Source: Pseudomonadota bacterium
Lineage (GTDB): Bacteria > UBA10199 > 2-02-FULL-44-16 > JAAZCA01
Reading direction: 5' to 3'
NCBI GenBank assembly: GCA_043798915.1
Contig: JAZDOG010000020.1
Span: 7,281-71,280, forward strand
DNA: 64,000 bases
Below, piece after piece: positions 1 to 11,512 of the stretch. Positions within the stretch are counted from its first letter, which is position 1, and each line of letters opens with the position of its first letter. The position numbers were made by a program, and so were the translations under genes. Below the pieces are notes generated by a model. That model had not been told where the DNA came from and did no database searches. It saw only the letters and a list, made by a program, of their open reading frames with translations.

Positions 1-525
1 TCGCGGCGAAAGGGTGTCGTCGAGCCGGTGGAGCGCGCCCAGAGAAGAGGCGAAGGCGCGCACGTCATCTATTTCAATTTCATTTTCCTTCAAGAGGCAC
101 GTTTTGAATCCGAGCTTCACGCCTTTGCGGTGAAGGTTCTTCACGGCACTGAACACCTTCTCCCTCGCTCCCCTGACGCCGGCGATTTTTTCGAACGCCG
201 TCCGGCTCATTGCCGGCAGCGTGATGTCGATCTTGTTCGGATTCAGGCGGGCGAACTCCCGGGCCGCTCGCGCATCTATCAGCGACCCGTTGGTGTAGAG
301 GATGAGCTGAAAACCCCTCCGTTTCGCGTGCCACATGATATCGAAGATGTCCTCCCTGAGGAGCGGCTCTCCGCCGGTGAACCCCAGATAGAGACAGCCG
401 GCATCGCGGAGCTGGTCCAGAAGGGAGAACACCTCTCCTGTCGAAAGCTCGGGCCGGCGCTTGAACCCTTCCGGCACGTAACAGTGCCCGCAGCGGAAGT
501 TGCAGCGATAGGTGAGTTCGAACAT
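1..525 (-). CDS. Radical SAM enzyme, partial (C-terminus beyond window start). N-terminus reads MFELTYRCNFRCGHCYVPEG... with a CxxxCxxC cluster.
   Basis: Manual reverse-complement translation of nt ~525->1 gives an uninterrupted frame with a canonical rSAM 4Fe-4S motif CNFRCGHC near the N-terminus and a GGE-like 'GFTGGEPLL' SAM-binding motif. Absent from the ORF track because it runs off the edge. G-rich SD (GAGGAGGGG) lies upstream. Start coordinate +/-3 nt. Confidence 0.65.
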   Translation of the reverse strand, partial: MFELTYRCNFRCGHCYVPEGFKRRPELSTGEVFSLLDQLRDAGCLYLGFTGGEPLLREDIFDIMWHAKRRGFQLILYTNGSLIDARAAREFARLNPNKIDITLPAMSRTAFEKIAGVRGAREKVFSAVKNLHRKGVKLGFKTCLLKENEIEIDDVRAFASSLGALHRLDDTLSPR

Positions 526-580
526 CACCCGGAGCGGGATGCCCCTCCTCGCCGCGCCCTCGCGGAGGCGGGCGTGGAAG

Positions 581-1678
581 TTATGATACGATCGATGGAT
601 CATTCATGCGCCGGAACGCCTTCTCCGCCATCCCGCAATAATAGGCTGCAGGGGCCTCCTCGTCGCCGGTCTCCAGAAAAGATGTGGCCGGGCAGATGCC
701 GCAGAGGGGCCTGAGCCGGCAGCTGCGGCATCTGGATTTCGTTTTGAATTTTTCCTTCAGGAGTTTCGGAAACTCCTCGTAGAAACCCTGCCGAAAGGGC
801 ACCTGCTTCAGATCGACGCCGAACCTCCTGGTCAGGGGGCACATCTTCAAAAAGCCAAAAGGGTCTATCGTGAACCCCGTCTTCCATTTCTCGCAATGAT
901 AAAGATGCTCCCTGTCCTTGTCCTTCGCCGGCCTGCGTGCCCTCTTCCCGGAGGGTGCCCCCTCACAATATTTTTTCCACATATCCTTATCCTGCCTCCT
1001 GACATCCTCGATCTCTTCGAACGTGAGTCTCAATTTCGTCGGCGCGAGGTCGCCGTTGAGCCTCGGCAAGATCATGGGGTCGTACTGGAAGCGATGTTTT
1101 TTCCGGTCCGGCGCGCCGGGGAGCCCATCGGCGAACGCCTTGATCCTTCCGATCTGATGCTGGTTCTGTTTCATGCAGTTCGTCTTGATCATGAAGGGAA
1201 TCTTTTCGTCGAAGAGCCTCCCGATGTTTCTCATCGTGCGCGCAAACGAGCCCTTCACCTGCGTGATCTCCTCGTAGACGTCCGCGGTGATGCCGTTGAG
1301 CGTTATCTCGACGGACTCCGGGGGGGAGGCGGCGAGATGGGAGATGATTCTTTCAGTCAGGGCATGCGCGCCGGTGTAGATGGTGACGATGAATCCCTTC
1401 CTCCTGGCGTAGTCGTAGAGCTCCAGGAAATCGGGCCTCACGAGGGGGTCGCCGCCGGTGAAGACGAGCCAGAGGCAGCCCTCCTCGCGGAGCCCATCGA
1501 GGATCTCTTTCCAGCCTTTGGCGGGGAGCTCCCGTTTTCTGTCCTCGCTGCCCTTGCAGAAGCAATGTATGCAGTTGAGGTCGCAGCTGTAGGTCAAACT
1601 GATATATCCCTTGAGCGGGGCGCGCTTCTTCTTGCGGTGTACCCAATCGCAAAAATAGACATGGCTGCGGTTCTTCAT
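581..1678 (-). CDS. Radical SAM/SPASM-domain peptide-modifying enzyme (maturase-like)
   Basis: Track ORF 581..1699 begins at TTG; the likelier ATG is at 1678 (MKNRSHVYFCDW..., GGAG 7 nt upstream). CxxxCxxC = CDLNCIHC. C-terminal Cys-rich SPASM-like region CRSCRLRPLCGICPA. 'VFTGGDPL' SAM motif. Confidence 0.8.
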   Translation of the reverse strand: MKNRSHVYFCDWVHRKKKRAPLKGYISLTYSCDLNCIHCFCKGSEDRKRELPAKGWKEILDGLREEGCLWLVFTGGDPLVRPDFLELYDYARRKGFIVTIYTGAHALTERIISHLAASPPESVEITLNGITADVYEEITQVKGSFARTMRNIGRLFDEKIPFMIKTNCMKQNQHQIGRIKAFADGLPGAPDRKKHRFQYDPMILPRLNGDLAPTKLRLTFEEIEDVRRQDKDMWKKYCEGAPSGKRARRPAKDKDREHLYHCEKWKTGFTIDPFGFLKMCPLTRRFGVDLKQVPFRQGFYEEFPKLLKEKFKTKSRCRSCRLRPLCGICPATSFLETGDEEAPAAYYCGMAEKAFRRMNDPSIVS

Positions 1679-1726: not shown

Positions 1727-1930
1727 TCAGCTAGTTGCAGCATACCAGACGGGTTCTACACACATACCTATCGCCGTAAACTTCTCGTAGGGCGTCCAGC
1801 AAGAGGAGCTTTCGTTCCAGTATTGACCCCCGTAAACTGGGTCGCTCATACAGTTGCATTCCAGCACTGCCTGCTCGGGGTTGAGCTCCACGCGGGTGAC
1901 CACCGGCCTGAATTTCGGTTTCTTGGGCAT
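1727..1930 (-). CDS. Candidate RiPP precursor peptide (67 aa): MPKKPKFRPVVTRVELNPEQAVLECNCMSDPVYGGQYWNESSSCWTPYEKFTAIGMCVEPVWYAATS
   Basis: Small ORF directly upstream of, and co-directional with, the rSAM/SPASM gene (48-nt gap). Very strong SD (AAGGGGGGGAGAT-ATG). Basic, charged N-terminal leader-like half; C-terminal half rich in Cys (4), Trp (3) and Tyr (4). The overlapping alternative-frame ORF 1731..1955 lacks an RBS and context. Confidence 0.5.
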   Translation of the reverse strand: MPKKPKFRPVVTRVELNPEQAVLECNCMSDPVYGGQYWNESSSCWTPYEKFTAIGMCVEPVWYAATS

Positions 1931-1967
1931 ATCTCCCCCCCCTTTTGCAGAACAACTATAATAACTT

Positions 1968-2058
1968 CCCCTCCTTTGTAAGGAGGGGACAGGGGAGGTA
2001 GATCAGCATTGAAACAGCGGTCTACCCCACCCTGACCCTCCCCTTACAAAGGGGAGGG
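1968..2058 (-). promoter_or_regulatory. Pair of near-identical perfect hairpins (CCCCTCCTT-TGT-AAGGAGGGG at ~1968-1988; CCCTCCCCTT-ACA-AAGGGGAGGG at ~2036-2058) in the 136-nt leader between the PqqD-like gene and the precursor peptide
   Basis: Seen directly in the sequence: 9-10-bp GC-rich stems with 3-nt loops. Their C-rich arms are complementary to the G-rich SD (GGGGGGGAG) of the peptide gene. Could act as an intra-operon attenuator/terminator or as SD-sequestering elements. Coordinates +/-2. Confidence 0.45.
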
Positions 2059-2066
2059 AAACGTCA

Positions 2067-2351
2067 CTAAACCAGGACCGCCTTGATCTCCTTTAAGTCC
2101 TTCAGGAGTTTTTTCATCTCCCTCTCCACCTCTTTGGGCGCGGAGCCAAACTCCTTCATGACCTTCTTTCCGATCCCCCCGGCCGTCGTCTTTCCGTCGA
2201 TCATCTCCCAGACCCGCGAGGCCGGTTTGTTGAGCGTGTAGATGCAATTGAGCTCTTCCGAGGTCTTGTAGATGGGCAGGAGGATTGTCTCATCGCCGAT
2301 CACGCGCGAGACCACGTCCGGATTCCTGCGCAGTATGGCGCCTTCACGCAT
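2067..2351 (-). CDS. PqqD-family protein (RiPP recognition element-like), 94 aa
   Basis: Track ORF 2067..2618, internal ATG at 2351 preceded by CAGGAGGGG. Sequence MREGAILRRNPDVVSRVIGDETILLPIYKTSEELNCIYTLNKPASRVWEMIDG... fits the PqqD/RRE pattern (P..v..r.idde.vLl.......y.LN..a..IWe..dG). The upstream 89 codons of the track ORF are G/P-rich low-complexity and probably untranslated. Confidence 0.7.
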   Translation of the reverse strand: MREGAILRRNPDVVSRVIGDETILLPIYKTSEELNCIYTLNKPASRVWEMIDGKTTAGGIGKKVMKEFGSAPKEVEREMKKLLKDLKEIKAVLV

Positions 2352-2440: not shown

Positions 2441-2842
2441 TTAAGATTTTATCCATTGGTTCAGTCTGACCGCACCCCATATCCCAAGGCGGATCAGGGG
2501 GGCGAATACAACGATGGACCTGTTCACAAACCGATGCGCCCGGCTTGTCAGATTCACGACCGTGCCGTTCTTGAGGATTCCGACCACCTTTCCCAGACAG
2601 CGGTCCGGCGAGACGCATTCAGCGGTCCCGGATGTGTCGCCGCGCGCATAGAGGCGGTAGCCGCTGCCCTCTTTCGCCCTTCGAACGAGCCGGTGACAGA
2701 CGAACTTCTCGCCGGCGCGGTACAGGATGATGTCCCCCACTTTCAGATCACCGATGGGGGCCTCTCTTATTATCAGGCGCTCGCCCTGCTTGATGAACGG
2801 CCACATGCTGAATCCGGCCGTATCGAAGAATGAAACCTCCAT
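2441..2842 (-). CDS. S24/S26-family serine peptidase (signal-peptidase-I / SodX-like), 133 aa; candidate leader peptidase
   Basis: Start ATG at 2842 (MEVSFFDTAGFSMWPF...) with an AGGAGA RBS. A 'SMWP' motif matches the GDSMxP nucleophile box of S24/S26 peptidases. GDIILYR / GKVVGILKNG beta-strand motifs. Confidence 0.55.
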   Translation of the reverse strand: MEVSFFDTAGFSMWPFIKQGERLIIREAPIGDLKVGDIILYRAGEKFVCHRLVRRAKEGSGYRLYARGDTSGTAECVSPDRCLGKVVGILKNGTVVNLTSRAHRFVNRSIVVFAPLIRLGIWGAVRLNQWIKS

Positions 2843-2915: not shown

Positions 2916-3170
2916 CATAGTGTGTGGGCGCGCCGGTTTGAAAAACCAGGTATTAAATTGTACGCACTTATAGCACTTTTTCAATATAACTACAAATTAG
3001 TTGATATAACCTCAATATTTGCGCTGTTATCACAAGTGAATTTGTGCAATGGTCTTTGTTGTTCTGTAAGTCACCACGATCTGGTATCTGTGCCTATACG
3101 GGTTGAGTTGTCACTTCCATTGAAAGAGTGCTGAGCTGTTACGAAAGACGAAGAAAGGGGGGAAGGGGCT

Positions 3171-4391
3171 ATGGGTTTAAAGATGATCGCCTATACTGAA
3201 CCAGAGATGGAGAAAATGCTCTCTGATCTCGAGACCGATAACGCCGAGCGAAAAGAATCCTTTCGGGGTGATGCGCCGACCAAGGTGCGCGAAGCCGTCT
3301 GTGCGTTTGCCAATGATTTGCCAAACCACGGCAAGCCAGGCATCGTCTTCGTCGGCGCGCGAGACGACGGAAATCCATCAGGGCTTGCGGTGACCGATGA
3401 GCTTCTTCGCCAGCTCGCAGACATCAAGACTGATGGCAACATTGTTCCTCCGCCGACGCTGACTGTTTCGAAACACGTTCTTCAAGGCAAGGAAATGGCG
3501 GTCATAACCGTTTGGCCCTCTGATTCCCCACCCGTGAGCTACAAGGGCCATATTTGCATTCGTATCGGCCCACGCCGTTGCATTGCCTCAGCGCAGGACG
3601 AGCGGCTTTTAAACGAAAAGAGACGGCACGGGGATCGTCCATTTGACGTTCGGGCAGTTCCGTCGTCTGCTCTGACAGATCTGGATCGACGGCGATTTGA
3701 GGAAGAGTACTTGCCTGCCGCCTTTGCATCCGATGTCCTTGCCGCAAACGAGCGCAGTTACGAGCAACGCCTTGCTGCGACCAAAATGGTGGTTGCGGCT
3801 GATGAGCCGACACCCACCGTGCTCGGTCTCCTGGTGCTGAGTGTGCGAACGCGCGATTTCATTCCAGGGGCGTATGTTCAATTTTTGCGGATTGCCGGTC
3901 GGGAGCTCGCCGACCCCGTTTCGGATGAACAAGTGATTGACGGCTCTGTGGTGGATGTGCTCCGACGCATAGATGAAAAACTAAGCTCACATAATCGCAC
4001 CGCGGTAGACCTGACAGGGGGAAGTCTGGAACGGCGCTCTTCCCTTTATCCAATGCCCGCCCTCCAGCAGCTCGTGCGCAATGCAATCATGCACCGAAGC
4101 TACGAAGCGACAAATGCCCCCGTGCGTGTGACATGGTATGACGACCGCATTGAAATCATCAACCCGGGCGGTCCCTATGGAGCTGTTACTAAGGAGAACT
4201 TTGGCCAGCCCGGCGTCAGCGATTACCGCAATCCCAGCCTTGCAGAAGCGCTGCGTGTTCTTGGCTTCGTGCAAAGATTCGGCGTAGGCATTGCCACAGC
4301 GCGCAGGGAACTACAGGCAAACGGGAATCCGTTGCCCGAGTTCGAAGTTACTGCGTCACACGTCGGTGTCACTCTGAGGTCTGCAACATGA
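3171..4391 (+). CDS. ATP-binding protein with AlbA_2 (Schlafen-like 'divergent AAA') N-terminal domain and HATPase_c_4-like C-terminus. Often annotated as RecG-like putative transcriptional regulator.
   Basis: 406-aa ORF. N-terminal region fits the AAA-4/AlbA_2 pattern; C-terminal region 'LVRNAIMHRSY...VRVTWYDDRIEIINPG' resembles HATPase_c_4. GC-richer than its AT-rich flanks. Confidence 0.5.
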   Translation: MGLKMIAYTEPEMEKMLSDLETDNAERKESFRGDAPTKVREAVCAFANDLPNHGKPGIVFVGARDDGNPSGLAVTDELLRQLADIKTDGNIVPPPTLTVSKHVLQGKEMAVITVWPSDSPPVSYKGHICIRIGPRRCIASAQDERLLNEKRRHGDRPFDVRAVPSSALTDLDRRRFEEEYLPAAFASDVLAANERSYEQRLAATKMVVAADEPTPTVLGLLVLSVRTRDFIPGAYVQFLRIAGRELADPVSDEQVIDGSVVDVLRRIDEKLSSHNRTAVDLTGGSLERRSSLYPMPALQQLVRNAIMHRSYEATNAPVRVTWYDDRIEIINPGGPYGAVTKENFGQPGVSDYRNPSLAEALRVLGFVQRFGVGIATARRELQANGNPLPEFEVTASHVGVTLRSAT

Positions 4392-5374
4392 AAACCATCG
4401 CCTTTTTTAACAACAAGGGTGGTGTAGGAAAAACCTCGCTAGTCTACCACCTTGCCTGGATGTACGCTGATCTCGGCCTCAGTGTGATCGCGGCGGATCT
4501 TGACCCACAAGCCAATCTCACTACCATGTTCCTGGACGAGGACGCCCTCGAAGCGCTCTGGCCGGAGGGAATGCCAGGACGGACTATTCTCGCCCCGCTG
4601 CTGCCGCTTTTGGAGGGAAGAGGTGGAATAGAGGAACCACATGTCGAGGACATCGCTGGCATAGGGCTCGTAGCCGGAGATCTTGCGCTTTCCGGATTCG
4701 AAGACGAACTGAGCCAACGATGGCCATACTGCCTTGAAGGCGATGCCCGAGCCTTCCGAGTAATAGGTGCGTTCCATCAGGTAATTGCGCTAGCAGCACA
4801 ACGTCGCGCGGCCGACGTCGTTCTAATCGACGTTGGTCCAAATCTCGGCGCGATCAACCGCGCAGCCTTGATTGCTGCCGATCATGTAGCAATTCCCCTC
4901 GCTCCGGATCTTTTTTCTCTCAAGGGACTTCAAAACCTTGGGCCCCGCTTGCGGGAGTGGCGTAAGGGATGGACAGAGCGCCTTAAAAAGTCTCCTGTTG
5001 GATTGGAGTTGCCTCAAGGGCACATGGCTCCGCTGGGCTATGTCGTAATGCAGCATGCAGTTCGTCTCGATAGACCTGTGAAGGCTTATGATAAGTGGAT
5101 GGTGCGAATCCCAAACGTGTACCGTGAGGCGGTTCTTGCGGAGGTAAAGACCCAGACAGATGTCGCTATCAACCGAGATCCTTACTGTTTGTCCACATTG
5201 AAACACTATAGAAGCCTTATGCCTCTCGCCCAAGAAGCACACAAACCCATGTTTTCGCTAAAAGCCGCCGACGGAGCGATCGGCGCTCATGCAAAATCTG
5301 TCCAAGACTGCTATCGTGATTTTCGTGAGCTTGCTATCGAAATTGCAAAACGGGCTGGAGTCACATTGCCGTAA
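4388..5374 (+). CDS. ParA/MinD-family P-loop ATPase
   Basis: Deviant Walker A 'FFNNKGGVGKTS' at the N-terminus; 'DLDPQANLT'; 4-nt overlap (ATGA) with the upstream gene suggests translational coupling. Confidence 0.8.
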   Translation: MKTIAFFNNKGGVGKTSLVYHLAWMYADLGLSVIAADLDPQANLTTMFLDEDALEALWPEGMPGRTILAPLLPLLEGRGGIEEPHVEDIAGIGLVAGDLALSGFEDELSQRWPYCLEGDARAFRVIGAFHQVIALAAQRRAADVVLIDVGPNLGAINRAALIAADHVAIPLAPDLFSLKGLQNLGPRLREWRKGWTERLKKSPVGLELPQGHMAPLGYVVMQHAVRLDRPVKAYDKWMVRIPNVYREAVLAEVKTQTDVAINRDPYCLSTLKHYRSLMPLAQEAHKPMFSLKAADGAIGAHAKSVQDCYRDFRELAIEIAKRAGVTLP

Positions 5375-5405: not shown

Positions 5406-6500
5406 TTGGTGGATGGCTATGCAGAAATAGGTTTTTACATTGATAATGAGATACCTGCCGTCATGGATCTGTCAACTTCAGGATGCGATTGGAACTCTGT
5501 CGTTGAACATGCCATCGAAAACGGCACGGCGACGCTCCTGTTTTCCCAATTGGCCTCGAAAGGGTTTCATGGCATGCCGCCGGCGGTCGTAGACCGCTTG
5601 AGGAAAATTTACTTATCCACGCTCATCAGCAACCGGAGGATGATGGCCGATGCGGCCCATGCCGTGCAGCTGCTCGAAAACGGCGGCGTCAAGACTGTGC
5701 TCATAAAGGGGATGGCGATGCTGGCGGACGTCTATGAGGACGCCGCGCTGCGCCGGACCTCGGACGCCGATATCCTCATCCATTTTGAAGACCTGGATAG
5801 AGCGAAGAAGATTCTCATGTCCGACGGCTTTGCCTGCGATCCCTTGGCCGACAAGTCGTCCTTTGCGAACGAGCTGGGTTTTGGAAGAAAAAACACAGTC
5901 TTCGTTGAGGTCAGATGGGACATGTGTCATCACGACCGCTTCCGGTTCTGCAACCGCTTCAGCATGGGGGGCATCTTCACGGGCGCCGCCGCCGCCGATC
6001 TCAATGGCGCCGCCGTAAAGATTCCCTCCCCGGAATATCAATTGCTCATCGCCGCCTTTCACCAATCGTTTGTCCACCATTTTGAAAAAAAGATGTGGCT
6101 GTATGATATCGTGGCGATCGCTGACCGCTACGGCAAGGACTTGAGCTGGGAGAGAGTCGTGCAGCTCTCAGAAACCTGCGGAATGCGGCGCGCCCTCGCG
6201 TACACGTTCCTTCGCGCGCGCCGGGAGTTCAATTTCAGCATGAAGCTTCCGCTGGAGATATCGCGCCTCCGGGTCCGCCTGCTGGATGCCTGCTCGCGCC
6301 GCCGTTACGGTTTTCTTGTGGAACTTCTCCTGCTGGACTGCCTGAAAGATCTCCTTCTCTATGCCGCGGGCGTCCTCTGGCCTTCCGACGGCTGGCTCAA
6401 ACACCACTACCGGACTTCGTCGACCAGACCCTGGCGCTTTCTGCATCCCTTTCTGGTCGCAGCGGGCGCCATCAAAAAAATCCTCGGGATATGGAGTTGA
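5406..6500 (+). CDS. Nucleotidyltransferase-family protein (NTP_transf_5-like, 'uncharacterised nucleotidyltransferase')
   Basis: 364-aa ORF. The track start is TTG; an in-frame ATG (MDLSTSG...) lies at 5463. Central 'TSDADILI...D' region is consistent with the nucleotidyltransferase fold of PF14907-like proteins. Confidence 0.5.
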   Translation: MVDGYAEIGFYIDNEIPAVMDLSTSGCDWNSVVEHAIENGTATLLFSQLASKGFHGMPPAVVDRLRKIYLSTLISNRRMMADAAHAVQLLENGGVKTVLIKGMAMLADVYEDAALRRTSDADILIHFEDLDRAKKILMSDGFACDPLADKSSFANELGFGRKNTVFVEVRWDMCHHDRFRFCNRFSMGGIFTGAAAADLNGAAVKIPSPEYQLLIAAFHQSFVHHFEKKMWLYDIVAIADRYGKDLSWERVVQLSETCGMRRALAYTFLRARREFNFSMKLPLEISRLRVRLLDACSRRRYGFLVELLLLDCLKDLLLYAAGVLWPSDGWLKHHYRTSSTRPWRFLHPFLVAAGAIKKILGIWS

Positions 6501-6503
6501 TGC

Positions 6504-7124
6504 ATGCTATATCAAAGAATATTGAGAAACCTTGCGCAGCTGGCGCAGGGCAAAATCAAGGCGCGAAAAATCCCTTCGAAGATAACCAATTTTATTCTCA
6601 GCTATAGTGAATCGCTCAGGCAGATCAAGAGAAGCAGATTCGCTATCGACGGCGTGATATTCAGGCCCGTTGAACCAAATGACGGATCGCGCTACGCCGA
6701 GTTTTTGCGCAATTATTATTTTCAGGAAGACATGCCTTACACAGGCGAGGCGGTAGCGGTCCCACATTGCAATGCGGAATACTTTTATCACGTCGCCGTG
6801 TATCAAAACAAGATCGTAGGAGGGGTGGGGATGGGCAGAATCCCGTCTGACACCGTTGACCTTTGGCGTATGGGAGGGTTGTCTGTTTTGCGTGATTTGC
6901 GCGGATACGGGATTGGCGAAAGGTTGCTGAAAACAGCAATTTCTGCCGTCGGGGAGGGGGACGCCATCATATTTCTCAATGTGGATAAAAATAATATGCC
7001 GGCGGTGAAATTATATAAGAAAGCCGGGTTTCATATGGCCGGCGGGCGGGAAAAAACCGTGATAAAAGATATCGGATACGCGCCGGGGAAAATAAGCATG
7101 GTGTTGGGGCGCATCCTCAATTGA
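6504..7124 (+). CDS. GNAT-family N-acetyltransferase
   Basis: Motif A-like 'RGYGIGERLLKTAI' and C-terminal 'LYKKAGF' typical of Acetyltransf_1. Confidence 0.7.
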   Translation: MLYQRILRNLAQLAQGKIKARKIPSKITNFILSYSESLRQIKRSRFAIDGVIFRPVEPNDGSRYAEFLRNYYFQEDMPYTGEAVAVPHCNAEYFYHVAVYQNKIVGGVGMGRIPSDTVDLWRMGGLSVLRDLRGYGIGERLLKTAISAVGEGDAIIFLNVDKNNMPAVKLYKKAGFHMAGGREKTVIKDIGYAPGKISMVLGRILN

Positions 7125-7178: not shown

Positions 7179-8804
7179 TCAGATTTTCCCGTTCATCTCA
7201 TATACATCAAAATGCCCGATCTCCTTCACCTTTAAGAAATTGTCGAAGATGTAGGATTTGAGCAGCGGAAAATCGTCAAGGCCGTCGTAATTATCAGGAT
7301 CAATTCTATGGAGGACCACTATCTCGACTTCATTTTTTTTGAGGTCATCCACGATCCAATTGTCCAGCCTGGCATCGTAGACCTCCGGATACGTCAACCT
7401 CTTTGCGAATTCGACCAGCGGCTGGGGAGAAGGCTTGCCCAGCGCGCCATAGAGCATGGCAAATAAATATGGAAAGGTAAAAAAATTCCTGTCCTTTTTC
7501 CGAAGATAGCTGGCCAGATTGTCAATATTCTCCGCTTTGTACGGATTGTCTTCGGTCGATGACTCAGCCCATTTCATGGGCTGCAGGTTGGGTTCCTTCA
7601 GCGCATTGAGGGACATGATGGGGGTAATCCACCCGCTTTTGAAAGCGTATCTGACGCCCCTGACCGCACAGACTATGAGCAGCATGGACACCAGCACGAT
7701 TAAAATCTTTCTTGGAGGAATCTTCAATTCACTGCGAAGCACTCCGGCGCTTTCGGGTATGGACAAATCAAAAAAATGGAACAGGAGGCCCGTCTCAAGT
7801 GAAGCGACGATGCCCACGAAGGAATACGATGTGGGGTAGACGGAGGTGTAAAAGAAGAAAAGCTGAAAGAGGAAGGCGCCTATGCACAGGACGGAAGATA
7901 TGAATGGGAGTCTCCATGAGGATCTCACCTTTTTAAAATTGCAGAAATACAATGCAACCACGACGGCCGGAACTGCGATGGTCAGCAATGCATATGGCTT
8001 GTGCATCTTCAGGGATTCGTTGAAAAGGGTTCCAAATCTTCCCGCGCCCACGCCGAATGGAAGGAGGATGTAATAACGCAGAAAATTATTGAGATCCGAT
8101 TTATATACAAGCCAGGACAAAAAAAGCGAAGCCGCCGCAGAAATGCCAAGGAGGAAAACGGCGATGCGTCCCCATGCGGGCCTCGCTTCGGAAATCGATG
8201 CTGCGATGATCAGCATAAGAAATAAAGGGATGGCAAAAAAACCCGTGTTCTGCTTCCCCAATAGTGTTGCGAATGCAAAGATTCCGCCTGTGAAGAGAAG
8301 CGCCATGTTGATGATGGACCGCCGTGATTTGCCGCAGAGCGCGGGGAGGATGAGCGCTATCGCTATGAATGAGAACGCCAGCGATATCTGCTCCGGCACC
8401 GGTATGCCGAAGGGCGCATTGAACCAGATTGCGGTGAGGAAACCCGCGATGTACGACAGATATTTCTGTGGAAAGAGGATTCTGACCGTCATCATGCTGC
8501 AGAGCGTCGCGACGACACTCATAGATGCCGCACAGACAAGGAACGCCACATAGTTGACGCCCAGGAGCTTGAAAAAAAGCGCCACAAGCCAGAACAACGC
8601 CAGGCTATGCTGGGAGACGAAGTCCTTGAACAGGATCTGGCCTGAGAATACCCTGTAACCGCCATCGAACGTCAATGCCGGGCTCAGCGGCATGGCAACC
8701 TGGCCTCCTATATAGCTCACGATGAACGCCGCTGATAGTATGAGCAGGATCACCGCAAGATCAAGCAGCTTGGAGCTCAGACGCGACGGATTGCTATTTG
8801 CCAT
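7179..8804 (-). CDS. Polytopic membrane glycosyltransferase, GT-C superfamily (ArnT/PMT/GT39-like), with C-terminal soluble domain
   Basis: About 12 predicted hydrophobic helices then a ~150-aa hydrophilic C-terminus. Probable ATG at 8804 (MANSNPSRLSSKLLDLAVILLIL...); the track ORF extends to 8909. Confidence 0.45.
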   Translation of the reverse strand: MANSNPSRLSSKLLDLAVILLILSAAFIVSYIGGQVAMPLSPALTFDGGYRVFSGQILFKDFVSQHSLALFWLVALFFKLLGVNYVAFLVCAASMSVVATLCSMMTVRILFPQKYLSYIAGFLTAIWFNAPFGIPVPEQISLAFSFIAIALILPALCGKSRRSIINMALLFTGGIFAFATLLGKQNTGFFAIPLFLMLIIAASISEARPAWGRIAVFLLGISAAASLFLSWLVYKSDLNNFLRYYILLPFGVGAGRFGTLFNESLKMHKPYALLTIAVPAVVVALYFCNFKKVRSSWRLPFISSVLCIGAFLFQLFFFYTSVYPTSYSFVGIVASLETGLLFHFFDLSIPESAGVLRSELKIPPRKILIVLVSMLLIVCAVRGVRYAFKSGWITPIMSLNALKEPNLQPMKWAESSTEDNPYKAENIDNLASYLRKKDRNFFTFPYLFAMLYGALGKPSPQPLVEFAKRLTYPEVYDARLDNWIVDDLKKNEVEIVVLHRIDPDNYDGLDDFPLLKSYIFDNFLKVKEIGHFDVYEMNGKI

Positions 8805-9117: not shown

Positions 9118-9975
9118 ATGAATATCAAAAAAGAAATATTCGATAAGCTCATCTGCTTAGGCTGCCATTCGAACGGATTGACCCTTTGCGCCGATTTCTC
9201 AATCCGGTGCGCCAAATGTTTGCGCACATATCCGATCGTGAACGGAGTGTATTCCTTTGTCCCGGAGGAAGCGGTTTCCTTCAGCGAAGTGCCGAAAGAG
9301 ATACGCGGCAATTATATCAGGGTTAAGAGGGCAGCCTACTTCGACGAGTCATTCATCCAAAAATTATACACGCATTATCATCGCTATGCGGGAAAGATGA
9401 GGAGCTTGTATGGCGGCGATGGATCAACGTTGGATATCGGGTTTGGGGCGGGCGAGCATTATGAATTCATCCGCCCTGACGAAAAAGACGGACGATCATT
9501 TATCGGAGCAGATCGCGACAGGTTCAAATTGGAATACTTTTGCAGAAATCATCAGGATGTTCCGGTGTTTCAGGCGGATGCACTCGACCTGCCGTTTTCG
9601 GATGGCAGTTTTGATGTGGTGCAGCTCTTGGCAACCATAGAACATTTTGATATAAAAGGCGTCAACAGGGTTATCTCTGAAAGCCTGAGGGTTTTGAAGG
9701 CGAACGGGATCCTGATCGTATGTTATCCGGCGGAAGGCAGCCTGCTGCTGAAGTGCTGCCGAAAGATCATGGGGGTCATTTTAAAGTTCAAGTCGGATTA
9801 TGACATGGTGAAAGATCTGGCGCATACGCATGCGCATTTATCTTCCGCCGCTGAAACAAGAAAAGCTTTGAAGAGCAACGGGCAATTAAAAAACGTCGAT
9901 TCATCATTCTACTTTCTGTCAATTCCAAATTTGCATTTATCACTTTTTATCAATGAAGTTTATAGAAAGATATAG
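9118..9975 (+). CDS. Class I SAM-dependent methyltransferase with N-terminal Trm112-like Zn-ribbon (CLGC...CAKC)
   Basis: Motif I 'LDIGFGAGEH'; acidic 'DALDLPFSDGSFDVV' post-I/II motifs (Methyltransf_11-like). Confidence 0.7.
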   Translation: MNIKKEIFDKLICLGCHSNGLTLCADFSIRCAKCLRTYPIVNGVYSFVPEEAVSFSEVPKEIRGNYIRVKRAAYFDESFIQKLYTHYHRYAGKMRSLYGGDGSTLDIGFGAGEHYEFIRPDEKDGRSFIGADRDRFKLEYFCRNHQDVPVFQADALDLPFSDGSFDVVQLLATIEHFDIKGVNRVISESLRVLKANGILIVCYPAEGSLLLKCCRKIMGVILKFKSDYDMVKDLAHTHAHLSSAAETRKALKSNGQLKNVDSSFYFLSIPNLHLSLFINEVYRKI

Positions 9976-9994: not shown

Positions 9995-11512
9995 ATGACA
10001 ATGAATCGCAATAAAATATTGCTTGTTTATCCAAAGGTGGGGATGAGCGGTTCCTTTGCGTGTCATCTTCCTTTGAGCCTTCTCTATGCGGCGGCGGATT
10101 CCATCAAGGCTGGATTCGAGGTGGATATTGTCGATGTGAGGCTTTGTCCGCAGAAATGGAAGGAAGCCATCTCTGCGAAGATATCTTCCGGCACGATTTT
10201 GGCCGGGCTGAGCGTCATGACGGGCACGCCGATAAAAAATGCCCTTGAGATCTCCAGGTGGATCAGGAGTTCTTATTCCCATGTGAAGGTTGTCTGGGGA
10301 GGGCCCCACGCCGCTTTCAACGGCGCCGAGATTTTAAGGGAAAGGAGCATAGATTATGTCGTCAGCGGCTATGGTTCGCTGCCCCTGTCCAGGATTGCCA
10401 GGTTCCTGAGGGGCGACAAAGATGCATTGCAACTTGAGGACATATCCGGCCTGTCATATCGCAAAAACGGCTCTATCATGTCGGTGCCGAGGGAAAATAA
10501 ATTTGAGCTGATCAATTATAAAGACATTCCATACCACCTTATAGAAAAAGACCTTGGCCGCTATGGCCAGCTGGACAACGGCGAGATCATTTTCCCAATG
10601 TATAGCGTGGTAGGCTGCCCGTATCACTGCGCATTTTGTTCTTCCCCGGCTCAGTATAGGGATTTTACAAACAAGTACGAACGCATTTCATCGCAGGAGG
10701 TGGTCGACCATATCGAATTTGTTAAAAACGGGTATGGCGCCGAATATATATATTTCATCGATGATGATTCGTTCGTCAATCTTGAACATGTGACAAAAAT
10801 AATCGACGAGGTCAACAGCAGGGCGCTCAAGGTGCGCCTGGGTTTCAGGGGGGCCAGGATCGATGAGATCAAAAAAATGGATGACGAATATCTGGAAAAG
10901 CTGGTCGATGTCGGAACTGACATCCTTCATGTCGGTGCTGAATCAGGCTCGCAAAGGATGCTCGATCTGATACGAAAGGATATCACCGTCGATGATATTA
11001 TTTTCGTAAATAAAAAGATGGCGCGCCATAGCAGGATCGTTACCACATATAACTGGATAGTCGGGCTGCCGGGGGAGACGGAGGGCGATTTGCGCAAGAC
11101 GAGGGAGCTGATCATGACACTGCTGGGCGACAACCCGACTGCGATAATTGTCATGCCCAATAAATACCGCCCCTTGCCAGGAACAGAGCTGTATGAACAC
11201 GCGTTGAGACACGGCTATAAAAAACCTGCCAGGCTGGAAGACTGGATCGACAGAGAGGCGGAGGGAAGCTGGCGGATGCCGTGGTATACAAAAGAGACGG
11301 CAAAGATGATAGATATGATGCAGGTGACTTCATTTTTTATAGACGACAAAATATTCAAGGTGCGGACAGGCAGGACATTGAAGTTTCTCCTGGCGCGCCT
11401 GGTCTCCTGGATATATGCCCCGATAGCCAGGTTGAGATTTAAGCATGGTTTCTCAGGGATGCTAGTTGAACACAAATTGTTCCAATGGTCGGTCTCCGCC
11501 TTCCGAAAATAA
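9995..11512 (+). CDS. B12-binding-domain radical SAM protein (class B rSAM; likely C- or O-methyltransferase on a sugar)
   Basis: N-terminal Rossmann-like B12-binding region (ILLVYPK..., 'VVWGGPHA'), then rSAM cluster CPYHCAFC. Confidence 0.8.
   Translation: MTMNRNKILLVYPKVGMSGSFACHLPLSLLYAAADSIKAGFEVDIVDVRLCPQKWKEAISAKISSGTILAGLSVMTGTPIKNALEISRWIRSSYSHVKVVWGGPHAAFNGAEILRERSIDYVVSGYGSLPLSRIARFLRGDKDALQLEDISGLSYRKNGSIMSVPRENKFELINYKDIPYHLIEKDLGRYGQLDNGEIIFPMYSVVGCPYHCAFCSSPAQYRDFTNKYERISSQEVVDHIEFVKNGYGAEYIYFIDDDSFVNLEHVTKIIDEVNSRALKVRLGFRGARIDEIKKMDDEYLEKLVDVGTDILHVGAESGSQRMLDLIRKDITVDDIIFVNKKMARHSRIVTTYNWIVGLPGETEGDLRKTRELIMTLLGDNPTAIIVMPNKYRPLPGTELYEHALRHGYKKPARLEDWIDREAEGSWRMPWYTKETAKMIDMMQVTSFFIDDKIFKVRTGRTLKFLLARLVSWIYAPIARLRFKHGFSGMLVEHKLFQWSVSAFRK

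Follow-up and report, generated by a model that had tools for sequence, protein, structure and literature searches.

A small peptide encoded between PqqD-type and radical SAM genes as the probable substrate of a RiPP pathway found mainly in Omnitrophota

The 64,000-nucleotide stretch of DNA analyzed here (positions 7,281 to 71,280 of contig JAZDOG010000020.1, assembly GCA_043798915.1, from a bacterium labelled Pseudomonadota; hereafter the window) carries close to its left edge a short open reading frame (ORF) on the minus strand, 1727..1930, with its ATG at 1930..1928 and its stop codon at 1729..1727. From sequence comparisons we propose, at a probability of roughly 0.8, that the 67-amino-acid product of this ORF, MPKKPKFRPVVTRVELNPEQAVLECNCMSDPVYGGQYWNESSSCWTPYEKFTAIGMCVEPVWYAATS, is the substrate peptide of a pathway for a peptide made by ribosomes and modified after translation (RiPP) that depends on a RiPP recognition element (RRE) and on radical S-adenosylmethionine (rSAM) enzymes. 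By its sequence, the peptide belongs to a large and unnamed precursor family, mostly from uncultured Omnitrophota, whose members are most likely RRE-dependent rSAM RiPP precursors with a so far unnamed leader/core architecture. ORF 1727..1930 is the sole member of this family that the family hidden Markov model (HMM) detects in the window.

The first 12 kb of the window contain 95 ORFs of at least 40 amino acids; the size of the ORF alone is therefore no evidence for a gene, and the case rests on its relatives. When 48 distinct nucleotide versions of the leader are compared, entropy averages 0.64/0.51/1.33 at the three codon positions, so that third positions are about twice as variable as first and second positions, and in the block encoding L-N-P-E-Q-A-V-L, positions 1 and 2 are almost invariant and position 3 is free to vary. 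The many short ORFs in this GC-rich stretch might suggest that the frame is open by chance, or that the real gene is the overlapping frame 1731..1955 on the same strand or the antisense ORF 1823..1981 (+). We consider the probability of this to be negligible, since the peptide frame is intact in 48 of 48 distinct homologous ORFs, the same-strand frames +1 and +2 are closed by stops in every one of them, antisense frames are open in just 2–19%, the codon-position entropies agree with the peptide frame, and the alternative-frame product has no meaningful family match. The closure of the same-strand frames disposes of the overlapping frame 1731..1955, which the original prediction, made from the letters of the window, had named as possibly the conserved one. 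Judged by these patterns of sequence variation, ORF 1727..1930 is a genuine coding gene under purifying selection.

The apparent size of the family depends strongly on the search method. A word-indexed protein search finds 4 proteins, namely an identical one (P0001; NCBI MFH0798814.1, named 'hypothetical protein') from a metagenome-assembled genome labelled Pseudomonadota, and three relatives that have the first 27 residues and nothing else in common with the window peptide. An exhaustive search with a profile HMM, built from 4 proteins and scored against 1.84 billion cluster representatives (50% identity), in contrast retrieves 776 cluster representatives at E ≤ 1e-3, and 518 at E ≤ 1e-10. 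The best 150 of the 776 matches are between 38 and 102 amino acids long, and all but one have at least 55. Ten 90%-identity clusters were examined; they have one member each, and every source-given name is 'hypothetical protein'. A back-translated pattern scan (one genome per species) yielded 33 loci, and six-frame inspection located 50 peptide copies in addition to that of the window, distributed over 36 loci. Most of these loci carry the taxon label Candidatus Omnitrophota; the labels Verrucomicrobiota, Elusimicrobia, Planctomycetales, delta proteobacterium, NPL-UPA2 and WOR-3 each account for a single locus. Neither the window peptide nor the alternative-frame product nor any of 40 family members matched a Pfam or NCBIfam model, and none of the 41 peptides tested matched SCIFF, sactipeptide or other curated precursor models.

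The architecture of the family was derived from 151 sequences. The leader follows the consensus M-[PSG]-[RK]-K-P-K-F-[KR]-P-x-I-T-R-[VI]-K-L-N-P-E-Q-A-V-L, with its positions conserved to 90–100% and F, P and LNPEQAVL to 99–100%. Both cysteines of the C-x-C motif that opens the core (C25 and C27 in the window peptide) are present in all 151 sequences. The next position is aromatic in 93% of the members (Y 60, W 15, F 14, H 4%) and is followed by x-x-G, with Gly in 72%; the window copy has Met in the aromatic position and Pro in that of the Gly. Everything past about residue 31 is hypervariable across the family. A variable stretch rich in G/S/T occupies the middle of the core, which is 15 to 75 residues long in total; the third Cys lies, in the median, at core position 25 and is invariant in a 40-sequence alignment (A3), and a fourth Cys is present in 53% of the members, at a median of 13 residues after the third. 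Three core cysteines are found in 34% of the members, four in 53%, and five or more in 11%. The core closes with a small-residue tail, [AT]-S-S, which terminates in Ser in 95% and in Thr in 3% of the sequences and has Ser as the penultimate residue in 55%. The window peptide fits this architecture with C25, C27, C44 and C57, a gap of 12 between its third and fourth Cys, and the ending ATS. By its conservation across the family, the C-terminal Ser is the most striking conserved feature of the core, and it had been missed in the original prediction.

The division into a leader-like N-terminal part and a Cys-containing core, which had been proposed from the single sequence, is borne out by the homologues: residues 1–23 are near-invariant, and the alignment that had been recommended for locating the leader/core boundary and the invariant cysteines revealed a split, with the C-x-C motif immediately behind it. 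The residues then listed are likewise real, i.e., Cys at positions 25, 27, 44 and 57, Trp at 38, 45 and 62, Tyr at 33, 37, 48 and 63, GG at 34–35, and the C-x-C, SSSCW and GMCVEPVW strings, although C25 had been counted on both the leader and the core side. The meaning attached to several of them is not upheld: the Trp and Tyr positions and the spacings in SSSCW and GMCVEPVW are not conserved, just the approximate positions of the third and fourth Cys are kept, and the GG pair is not a feature of the family.

Three other interpretations of the peptide's sequence were considered and rejected. A double-glycine leader is at odds with the lack of conservation of GG, and the ABC transporter of one related locus (L002) has no recorded C39 peptidase domain; a Sec signal peptide does not fit a peptide that lacks a hydrophobic segment; and a disulfide-only role for the cysteines does not accord with three being the second most common Cys count. 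A sub-branch of the family, in loci L032–L036, reads ...NPEQAVLSCC, with C-C replacing C-x-C; its N-terminus is longer and rich in Lys, and its cores are shorter. The maturases of this sub-branch are also more divergent, the ScmC-like protein of L035 (see below for this protein) having 31–35% identity.

Each locus encodes between one and five copies of the peptide, and paralogues from the same locus diverge in a manner expected for a substrate. Their leaders share a nucleotide identity of 0.62–0.95, mostly of 0.7 or more, and their cores mostly 0.45–0.63 at the nucleotide and 0.11–0.46 at the amino acid level, which is the level of unrelated sequences. In a RiPP precursor one would generally look for a short peptide whose leader is conserved and whose core varies, as is the case here. 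The peptide could alternatively be a small structural, regulatory or immunity protein that resides in the operon without being modified, and the orphan copies far from maturase genes (one in L005 beside biotin genes, five in L036) would be in keeping with such a role; orphan precursors are, however, common in other RiPP families. We regard this alternative as very improbable in view of the conserved leader and hypervariable core, the multiplicity of copies and their fixed place between the RRE and rSAM genes, all of which are substrate-like, and because the peptide lacks any hydrophobic segment in keeping with an immunity role.

The interpretation as a substrate draws further support from the gene neighbourhood (Table 1). 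The window itself shows only the genes for a peptidase, a PqqD-family protein, the peptide, a first rSAM enzyme (rSAM_A), part of a second (rSAM_B, orthologous to rSAM_B of the related loci) and an NTP_transf_5 protein; the operon continues past the left edge. A recurrent gene order could be compiled from the genes and recorded Pfam hits of loci L001–L003 and a BLAST map of all loci, and reads [ABC]-S24-(UPF0489/TPR protein)-PqqD-peptide(s)-rSAM_A-rSAM_B-ScmC-like-rSAM_C-ABC-NTP_transf_5. It is found in about 25 loci and in most of those with enough flanking DNA. Of 51 peptide copies, 32 have a maturase gene within 500 nt and 37 have one within 3 kb. As had been suggested originally, the peptide is part of a PqqD/rSAM operon: in the window, as in most related loci, the PqqD gene is directly upstream and the rSAM_A gene directly downstream of it. 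The candidate precursor is therefore encoded beside modifying enzymes and an RRE-type protein, whose recognition of the leader is suggested by analogy. Genes of the NTP_transf_5 family occur in at least ten related loci, where they adjoin the ABC transporter or the maturases; that of the window is divergently oriented, 2.5 kb from the operon, and is probably part of the cluster.

Table 1. Positions of the candidate precursor gene, its segments and neighbouring features in the 64-kb window
Feature	Position	Strand	Details
Candidate precursor peptide gene	1727..1930	-	67 aa + stop; 75.5 bits, E 3.6e-22 against the family HMM
Predicted leader	1862..1930	-	residues 1-23 (MPKKPKFRPVVTRVELNPEQAVL); near-invariant, variation mainly at third codon positions
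Conserved core start	1838..1861	-	residues 24-31 (ECNCMSDP); family x-C-x-C-[YWF]-x-x-G
Hypervariable core	1730..1837	-	residues 32-67; Cys44, Cys57, tail A-A-T-S, Ser67 at nt 1730..1732
Purine-rich ribosome-binding region	1931..1942	-	GGGGGGGGAGAT, abuts ATG
Palindromic intergenic element, pqqD-peptide	1934..2059	-	126 nt; inverted repeats I1, I3-I5; RNA fold
PqqD-family protein	2067..2351	-	Pfam PqqD 41.9 bits, cutoff 23.4
S24/S26-type peptidase	2441..2842	-	ATG at 2842 after AGGAG; ORF open up to 2896
Promoter-like site	2957..2984	-	upstream of peptidase gene; TTGAAA-16-TACAAT, 10/12 consensus, pattern match only
rSAM/SPASM enzyme A	581..1678	-	365 aa from ATG at 1678; Radical_SAM 68 bits
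rSAM enzyme B	1..603	-	N-terminal 201 aa, cut by window edge; Radical_SAM 91.8 bits
NTP_transf_5 'uncharacterised nucleotidyltransferase'	5406..6500	+	PF14907, 141.8 bits

The enzymes encoded by these clusters are of a kind compatible with peptide modification. Orthologues of the PqqD protein, the putative RRE for the leader, are encoded immediately upstream of the peptide in many loci. All three rSAM orthogroups, including rSAM_A of the window, possess a CX3CX2C motif and a seven-Cys SPASM pattern with CX2CX5CX2C (in window rSAM_A, the pattern includes CRSCRLRPLCGIC); the Pfam SPASM model was unmatched at E ≤ 1 for window rSAM_A and at E ≤ 0.01 for rSAM_B and rSAM_C of L002. The closest solved relatives of rSAM_A are SkfB, which is the best, PqqE and SuiB, all of which are peptide-modifying enzymes, and the NCBIfam matches of the rSAM proteins are generic (AhbD, NirJ, MftC, PqqE, StsB, PapB, ScmE/F). 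The peptidase matches TIGR02228 (sigpep_I_arch, a family resembling the archaeal/endoplasmic reticulum-type signal peptidase I) at E 1.8e-10 and Peptidase_S24 at E 1e-4; its orthologues conserve a G-x-S-M-x-P-F serine box and an invariant H-R, and it is a putative leader peptidase.

In the pathway that we envision, the discrete PqqD protein would bind the leader through K-P-K-F-[KR]-P-x-I-T-R-V-K-L-N-P-E-Q-A-V-L and present the core to three paralogous rSAM/SPASM enzymes, which would install intramolecular crosslinks on the invariant C-x-C and on one or two downstream cysteines. By analogy with SkfB, AlbA and PapB-type enzymes, these crosslinks would most likely be Cys-S-to-carbon thioethers of the sacti/ranthipeptide type; the aromatic residue that follows C-x-C is another possible crosslinking partner. 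A ScmC-like kinase would phosphorylate the nearly invariant Ser at the C-terminus on its side chain, in the manner of the HprK homologues PadeK and PsmK acting on lasso precursors, and the NTP_transf_5 protein may attach another group to the Ser phosphate, as PsmN does. The membrane-anchored, Ser/His signal-peptidase-like enzyme would then remove the leader, and the ABC transporter would export the product.

This scheme resembles that of the sactipeptides and ranthipeptides (SkfA/SkfB, subtilosin SboA/AlbA, SCIFF/CteB, PapA/PapB). Both have a short precursor composed of a leader and a Cys-containing core, rSAM enzymes with a 7-Cys SPASM domain, leader recognition of the RRE/PqqD-like type, a dedicated protease and an ABC exporter; moreover, SkfB is the best structural match of rSAM_A, and PapB and AlbA are among the NCBIfam matches. 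There are also clear differences. The RRE is fused to the rSAM enzyme in those systems and is a separate protein here, where each cluster contains three paralogous rSAM enzymes together with an HprK-fold kinase, an NTP_transf_5 protein and a near-invariant C-terminal Ser, and where thioethers are suggested by analogy. The rSAM proteins score 72 bits against a PapB cutoff of 340 and 51–72 bits against an AlbA cutoff of 850, and no precursor or maturase exceeds a curated cutoff (SCIFF, AlbA, PapB, StsB and others), although the maturases do have the CX3CX2C motif and the 7-Cys SPASM pattern.

The pathways for pyrroloquinoline quinone (PQQ; PqqA/D/E) and mycofactocin (MftA/B/C) likewise combine a small peptide substrate with an rSAM/SPASM enzyme and a stand-alone PqqD-like chaperone, and MftC and PqqE are among the top NCBIfam matches of the rSAM enzymes. 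It could hence be asked whether the peptide is, like PqqA or MftA, the precursor of a redox cofactor or another fixed small molecule, from which a few conserved residues are kept and the variable rest is discarded. PqqD together with PqqE-like rSAM/SPASM enzymes is a hallmark of those pathways, and the strictly conserved features of the core are short, consisting just of C-x-C-aromatic-x-x-G and the C-terminal Ser. We nevertheless consider this explanation improbable. Cofactor precursors are encoded by single-copy genes and have conserved core residues; the peptide differs from the PQQ and mycofactocin precursors because its core is hypervariable, ranges from 15 to 75 residues and occurs in up to five divergent copies per locus. 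In addition, a dedicated ABC exporter and a putative leader peptidase are conserved, no genes for cofactor-dependent enzymes are conserved nearby, and the rSAM scores are 4- to 6-fold under the cutoffs of PqqE and MftC.

Another point of comparison is the SynChlorMet (SCM) cassette (ScmC, TIGR04249; ScmD, TIGR04248; ScmE, TIGR04250; ScmF, TIGR04251), which likewise combines a PqqD homologue, PqqE-like rSAM/SPASM paralogues and an HprK-related protein. It contains two rSAM enzymes and the clusters studied here three, and the scores obtained here are 4- to 6-fold under each equivalog cutoff of NCBIfam (ScmC, 27.5 versus 125; ScmD, 20.8 versus 100; ScmE/F, 64–83 versus 400), so that none of the proteins qualifies as a member of the SCM families. 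According to the TIGRFAMs description, and to our knowledge, no precursor has been identified for the SCM cassette.

The ScmC-like protein is annotated in the database with PF27840 ('ScmC'), and its NCBIfam matches to ScmC, HprK-related kinase B and HPr(Ser) kinase are weak. An alignment of 26 members shows an invariant G-K-S-G-A-G-K-S P-loop and an invariant N-D-D-R motif. When compared by sequence with the PDB, the ScmC-like protein gave no significant match (E 0.13–0.46), and the NTP_transf_5 protein gave none at all. An AlphaFold2 model of the ScmC-like protein (pLDDT, the predicted local distance difference test, 82; pTM, the predicted template modelling score, 0.81) was matched by Foldseek to phosphoenolpyruvate carboxykinases (PEPCK) at E values down to 5e-8, and its two-domain fold is nearest to PEPCK, not to HprK. 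On the strength of the invariant motifs and the PEPCK-like fold of the model, the ScmC-like protein is a P-loop kinase of the HprK/PEPCK superfamily.

What such a kinase might do is suggested by the phosphorylated lasso peptides. HprK homologues act on lasso precursors by phosphorylating their C-terminal Ser and have little other sequence requirement (PMC6993621, PMC8498205), and PsmN, an 'uncharacterized nucleotidyltransferase', adds a hexose to the Ser phosphate (PMC6993621, PMC8498205). Furthermore, the genes for HprK, PqqD and the uncharacterised nucleotidyltransferase co-occur in lasso clusters (PMC7533575). For paeninodin (PadeA/PadeK) and pseudomycoidin (PsmA/PsmK/PsmN), with PadeK, PsmK and PsmN being set beside the present proteins by their descriptions, the resemblance extends to the C-terminal Ser as the sole conserved feature of the precursor core, an HprK-family kinase, a PqqD-type RRE, an 'uncharacterised nucleotidyltransferase' and an ABC exporter; a C-terminal Ser and an HprK-family kinase are present together here as well. 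The present clusters differ in having rSAM/SPASM enzymes in place of a lasso cyclase: neither a cyclase resembling Asn synthetase nor a B2 protease resembling transglutaminase appears in the recorded Pfam lists of L001–L003, the other loci having been compared with the cluster's own proteins only. Their kinase, too, differs: it is only distantly related to HprK and carries an additional N-terminal domain in a PEPCK-like arrangement.

The peptide may also be a RiPP precursor whose C-terminal Ser is a signal for the peptidase or exporter, or the acceptor of a crosslink, with the ScmC-like protein serving a non-kinase or non-peptide role as a scaffold or regulator. ScmC has no assigned function, its sequence similarity to HprK is marginal, its two-domain fold is nearest to another enzyme, and loci L007 and L033 have peptide and rSAM genes but no ScmC-like gene detected in the available stretch. 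We rate this possibility as rather unlikely, though not so improbable as the alternatives discussed above. The invariance of Walker-A and of the D-D metal-binding motif in the ScmC-like proteins points to catalysis, PsmK requires the same D-D pair (PMC6993621), and the trio of HprK-like, PqqD and NTP_transf_5 proteins together with a C-terminal Ser fits the lasso precedent. Only tentatively, with chances somewhat below even, do we advance the full proposal that these peptides constitute a new RiPP class, mainly of uncultured Omnitrophota, whose products would be multiply rSAM-crosslinked at C-x-C and would bear a C-terminal Ser phosphate (possibly glycosylated or nucleotidylated) placed by a ScmC/HprK-related kinase family so far without a function. 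By the same reasoning, the substrate that is missing for SynChlorMet-type and 'HprK-related kinase' cassettes would be provided; these cassettes have long been annotated, for years, with no precursor known.

Several observations weigh against the proposed pathway or against its application to the peptide of the window. The NCBIfam scores of the rSAM enzymes are 40–131 bits against cutoffs of 265–850, and the best of these matches are to tetrapyrrole, mycofactocin and PQQ enzymes. The resemblance of the ScmC-like protein to HprK is at the level of fold and motifs only, and its role as a peptide kinase is put forward by analogy. Three positions that are conserved in the family differ from the consensus in the window peptide (K15E, aromatic28M, G31P), and the end of the leader, A-V-L-x-C-x-C, offers no textbook A-x-A cleavage site. 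In addition, the ScmC-like gene, rSAM_C and the ABC transporter do not appear in the window, its NTP_transf_5 gene is parted from the operon by two unrelated genes, and some members of the family are orphans without a maturase within 10 kb.

The family provides an entry point to a large uncharacterised group of peptides, with a leader motif that can be used for HMM searches, a defined core architecture and a conserved set of enzymes. The peptides are short and fall outside all Pfam-A and NCBIfam models; their sources name them just 'hypothetical protein'. In the searchable literature, whose scope leaves subscription journals outside, no paper was found with the leader motif or the name SynChlorMet; the literature on Omnitrophota and RiPPs contains counts of biosynthetic gene clusters only, and no relevant paper turned up for Omnitrophica together with ranthipeptide, or for PF14907. 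Most producers belong to Omnitrophota or to further candidate phyla, groups whose chemistry has hardly been explored, and the peptides are small and easy to synthesize or to express. The three co-evolving SPASM enzymes that would act on the C-x-C-aromatic motif may represent new crosslink chemistry. We further propose that the ScmC-like/PF27840 proteins are peptide kinases acting on a C-terminal Ser, and that PqqD, the HprK-like protein and NTP_transf_5 form a module that moves between RiPP classes (lasso peptides and rSAM-modified peptides).

With respect to expression, the sequence that precedes the start codon of the peptide is AAAAGGGGGGGGAGAT-ATG, with a run of eight rather than seven G. 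A GGAGG-type Shine–Dalgarno (SD) sequence stands 5–10 nt before the ATG in nearly all homologues. The peptide gene is not, as had been claimed, the only ORF of the operon with a well-developed SD, since pqqD is preceded by AGGAGGGG, the peptidase gene by AGGAG and rSAM_A by GGAG. The spacer of about 135 nt between the PqqD and peptide genes is structured. Its palindromic element contains two perfect 10-bp hairpins (1967–1989 and 2036–2058) and has a predicted minimum-energy RNA fold of -72.6 kcal/mol (z -5.3), in which the G-run of the SD is paired with an upstream C-rich arm; promoter-like (1955–1982) and terminator-like pattern matches also fall within it. The palindrome has no other copy in the window and matches no Rfam family, and the family shows no common 5' structure. 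The element might control the ratio of precursor to enzymes. The promoter-like sequence upstream of the peptidase gene is a possible promoter of the operon.

Some members of the family stand apart from maturase genes. The orphan copy of L005 (10001–10261), with no maturase within 10 kb, is directly upstream of what appear to be biotin-synthesis genes, an assignment based on a CX3CX2C ORF and N-terminal sequences only. The five divergent copies of L036 (8225–12119), equally without a maturase within 10 kb, are found among ORFs with prepilin-like hydrophobic N-termini. In L001, a truncated leader remnant at 143–271 (MYTKKKRFKPVITRVKLNPEQ, with unrelated sequence after it) is found just upstream of an NTP_transf_2/HEPN pair, which separates it from the intact precursor gene at 1307–1549; the remnant looks like a precursor gene disrupted by an inserted toxin–antitoxin-like module.

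The accessory genes vary between clusters. A UPF0489-domain protein, next to or fused with TPR repeats, is encoded between the peptidase and PqqD genes in many clusters (L002 at 743–2148, L007, L009, L013, L016, L026, L031) and is missing from that of the window; it shows a weak match to the FlmR/OhkR family of peptide arginases (38 bits, cutoff 350). Glycosyltransferase genes are added in L001, L022 and L026, and L001 also encodes a CxxCxxCC protein. In the window, a gene for a GNAT acetyltransferase (206 amino acids) follows 3 nt after NTP_transf_5, the pair spanning 5406–7124 (+). GNAT genes are irregular in related clusters, with a weak match in L025 only, and the enzyme may serve in this genome as an extra tailoring enzyme. 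Between the operon and NTP_transf_5, at 3171–5374 (+), stand genes for an SLFN/AlbA_2 plus HATPase_c_4 protein (406 amino acids) and a ParA/AAA_31-like ATPase (328 amino acids), which overlap by 4 nt. Their GC content is 0.54 (0.57 in the operon), and they may be an inserted module of the defence or partition type. No tRNA genes, and no Rfam families at the gathering threshold, were found in the 64-kb window, whose overall GC content of 0.51 compares with 0.57 in the peptide operon. Further to the right, the window encodes a large multi-pass membrane protein without a Pfam hit (7179–8804, -), a class-I SAM methyltransferase (9118–9975, +) and a B12-binding radical SAM protein (9995–11512, +).

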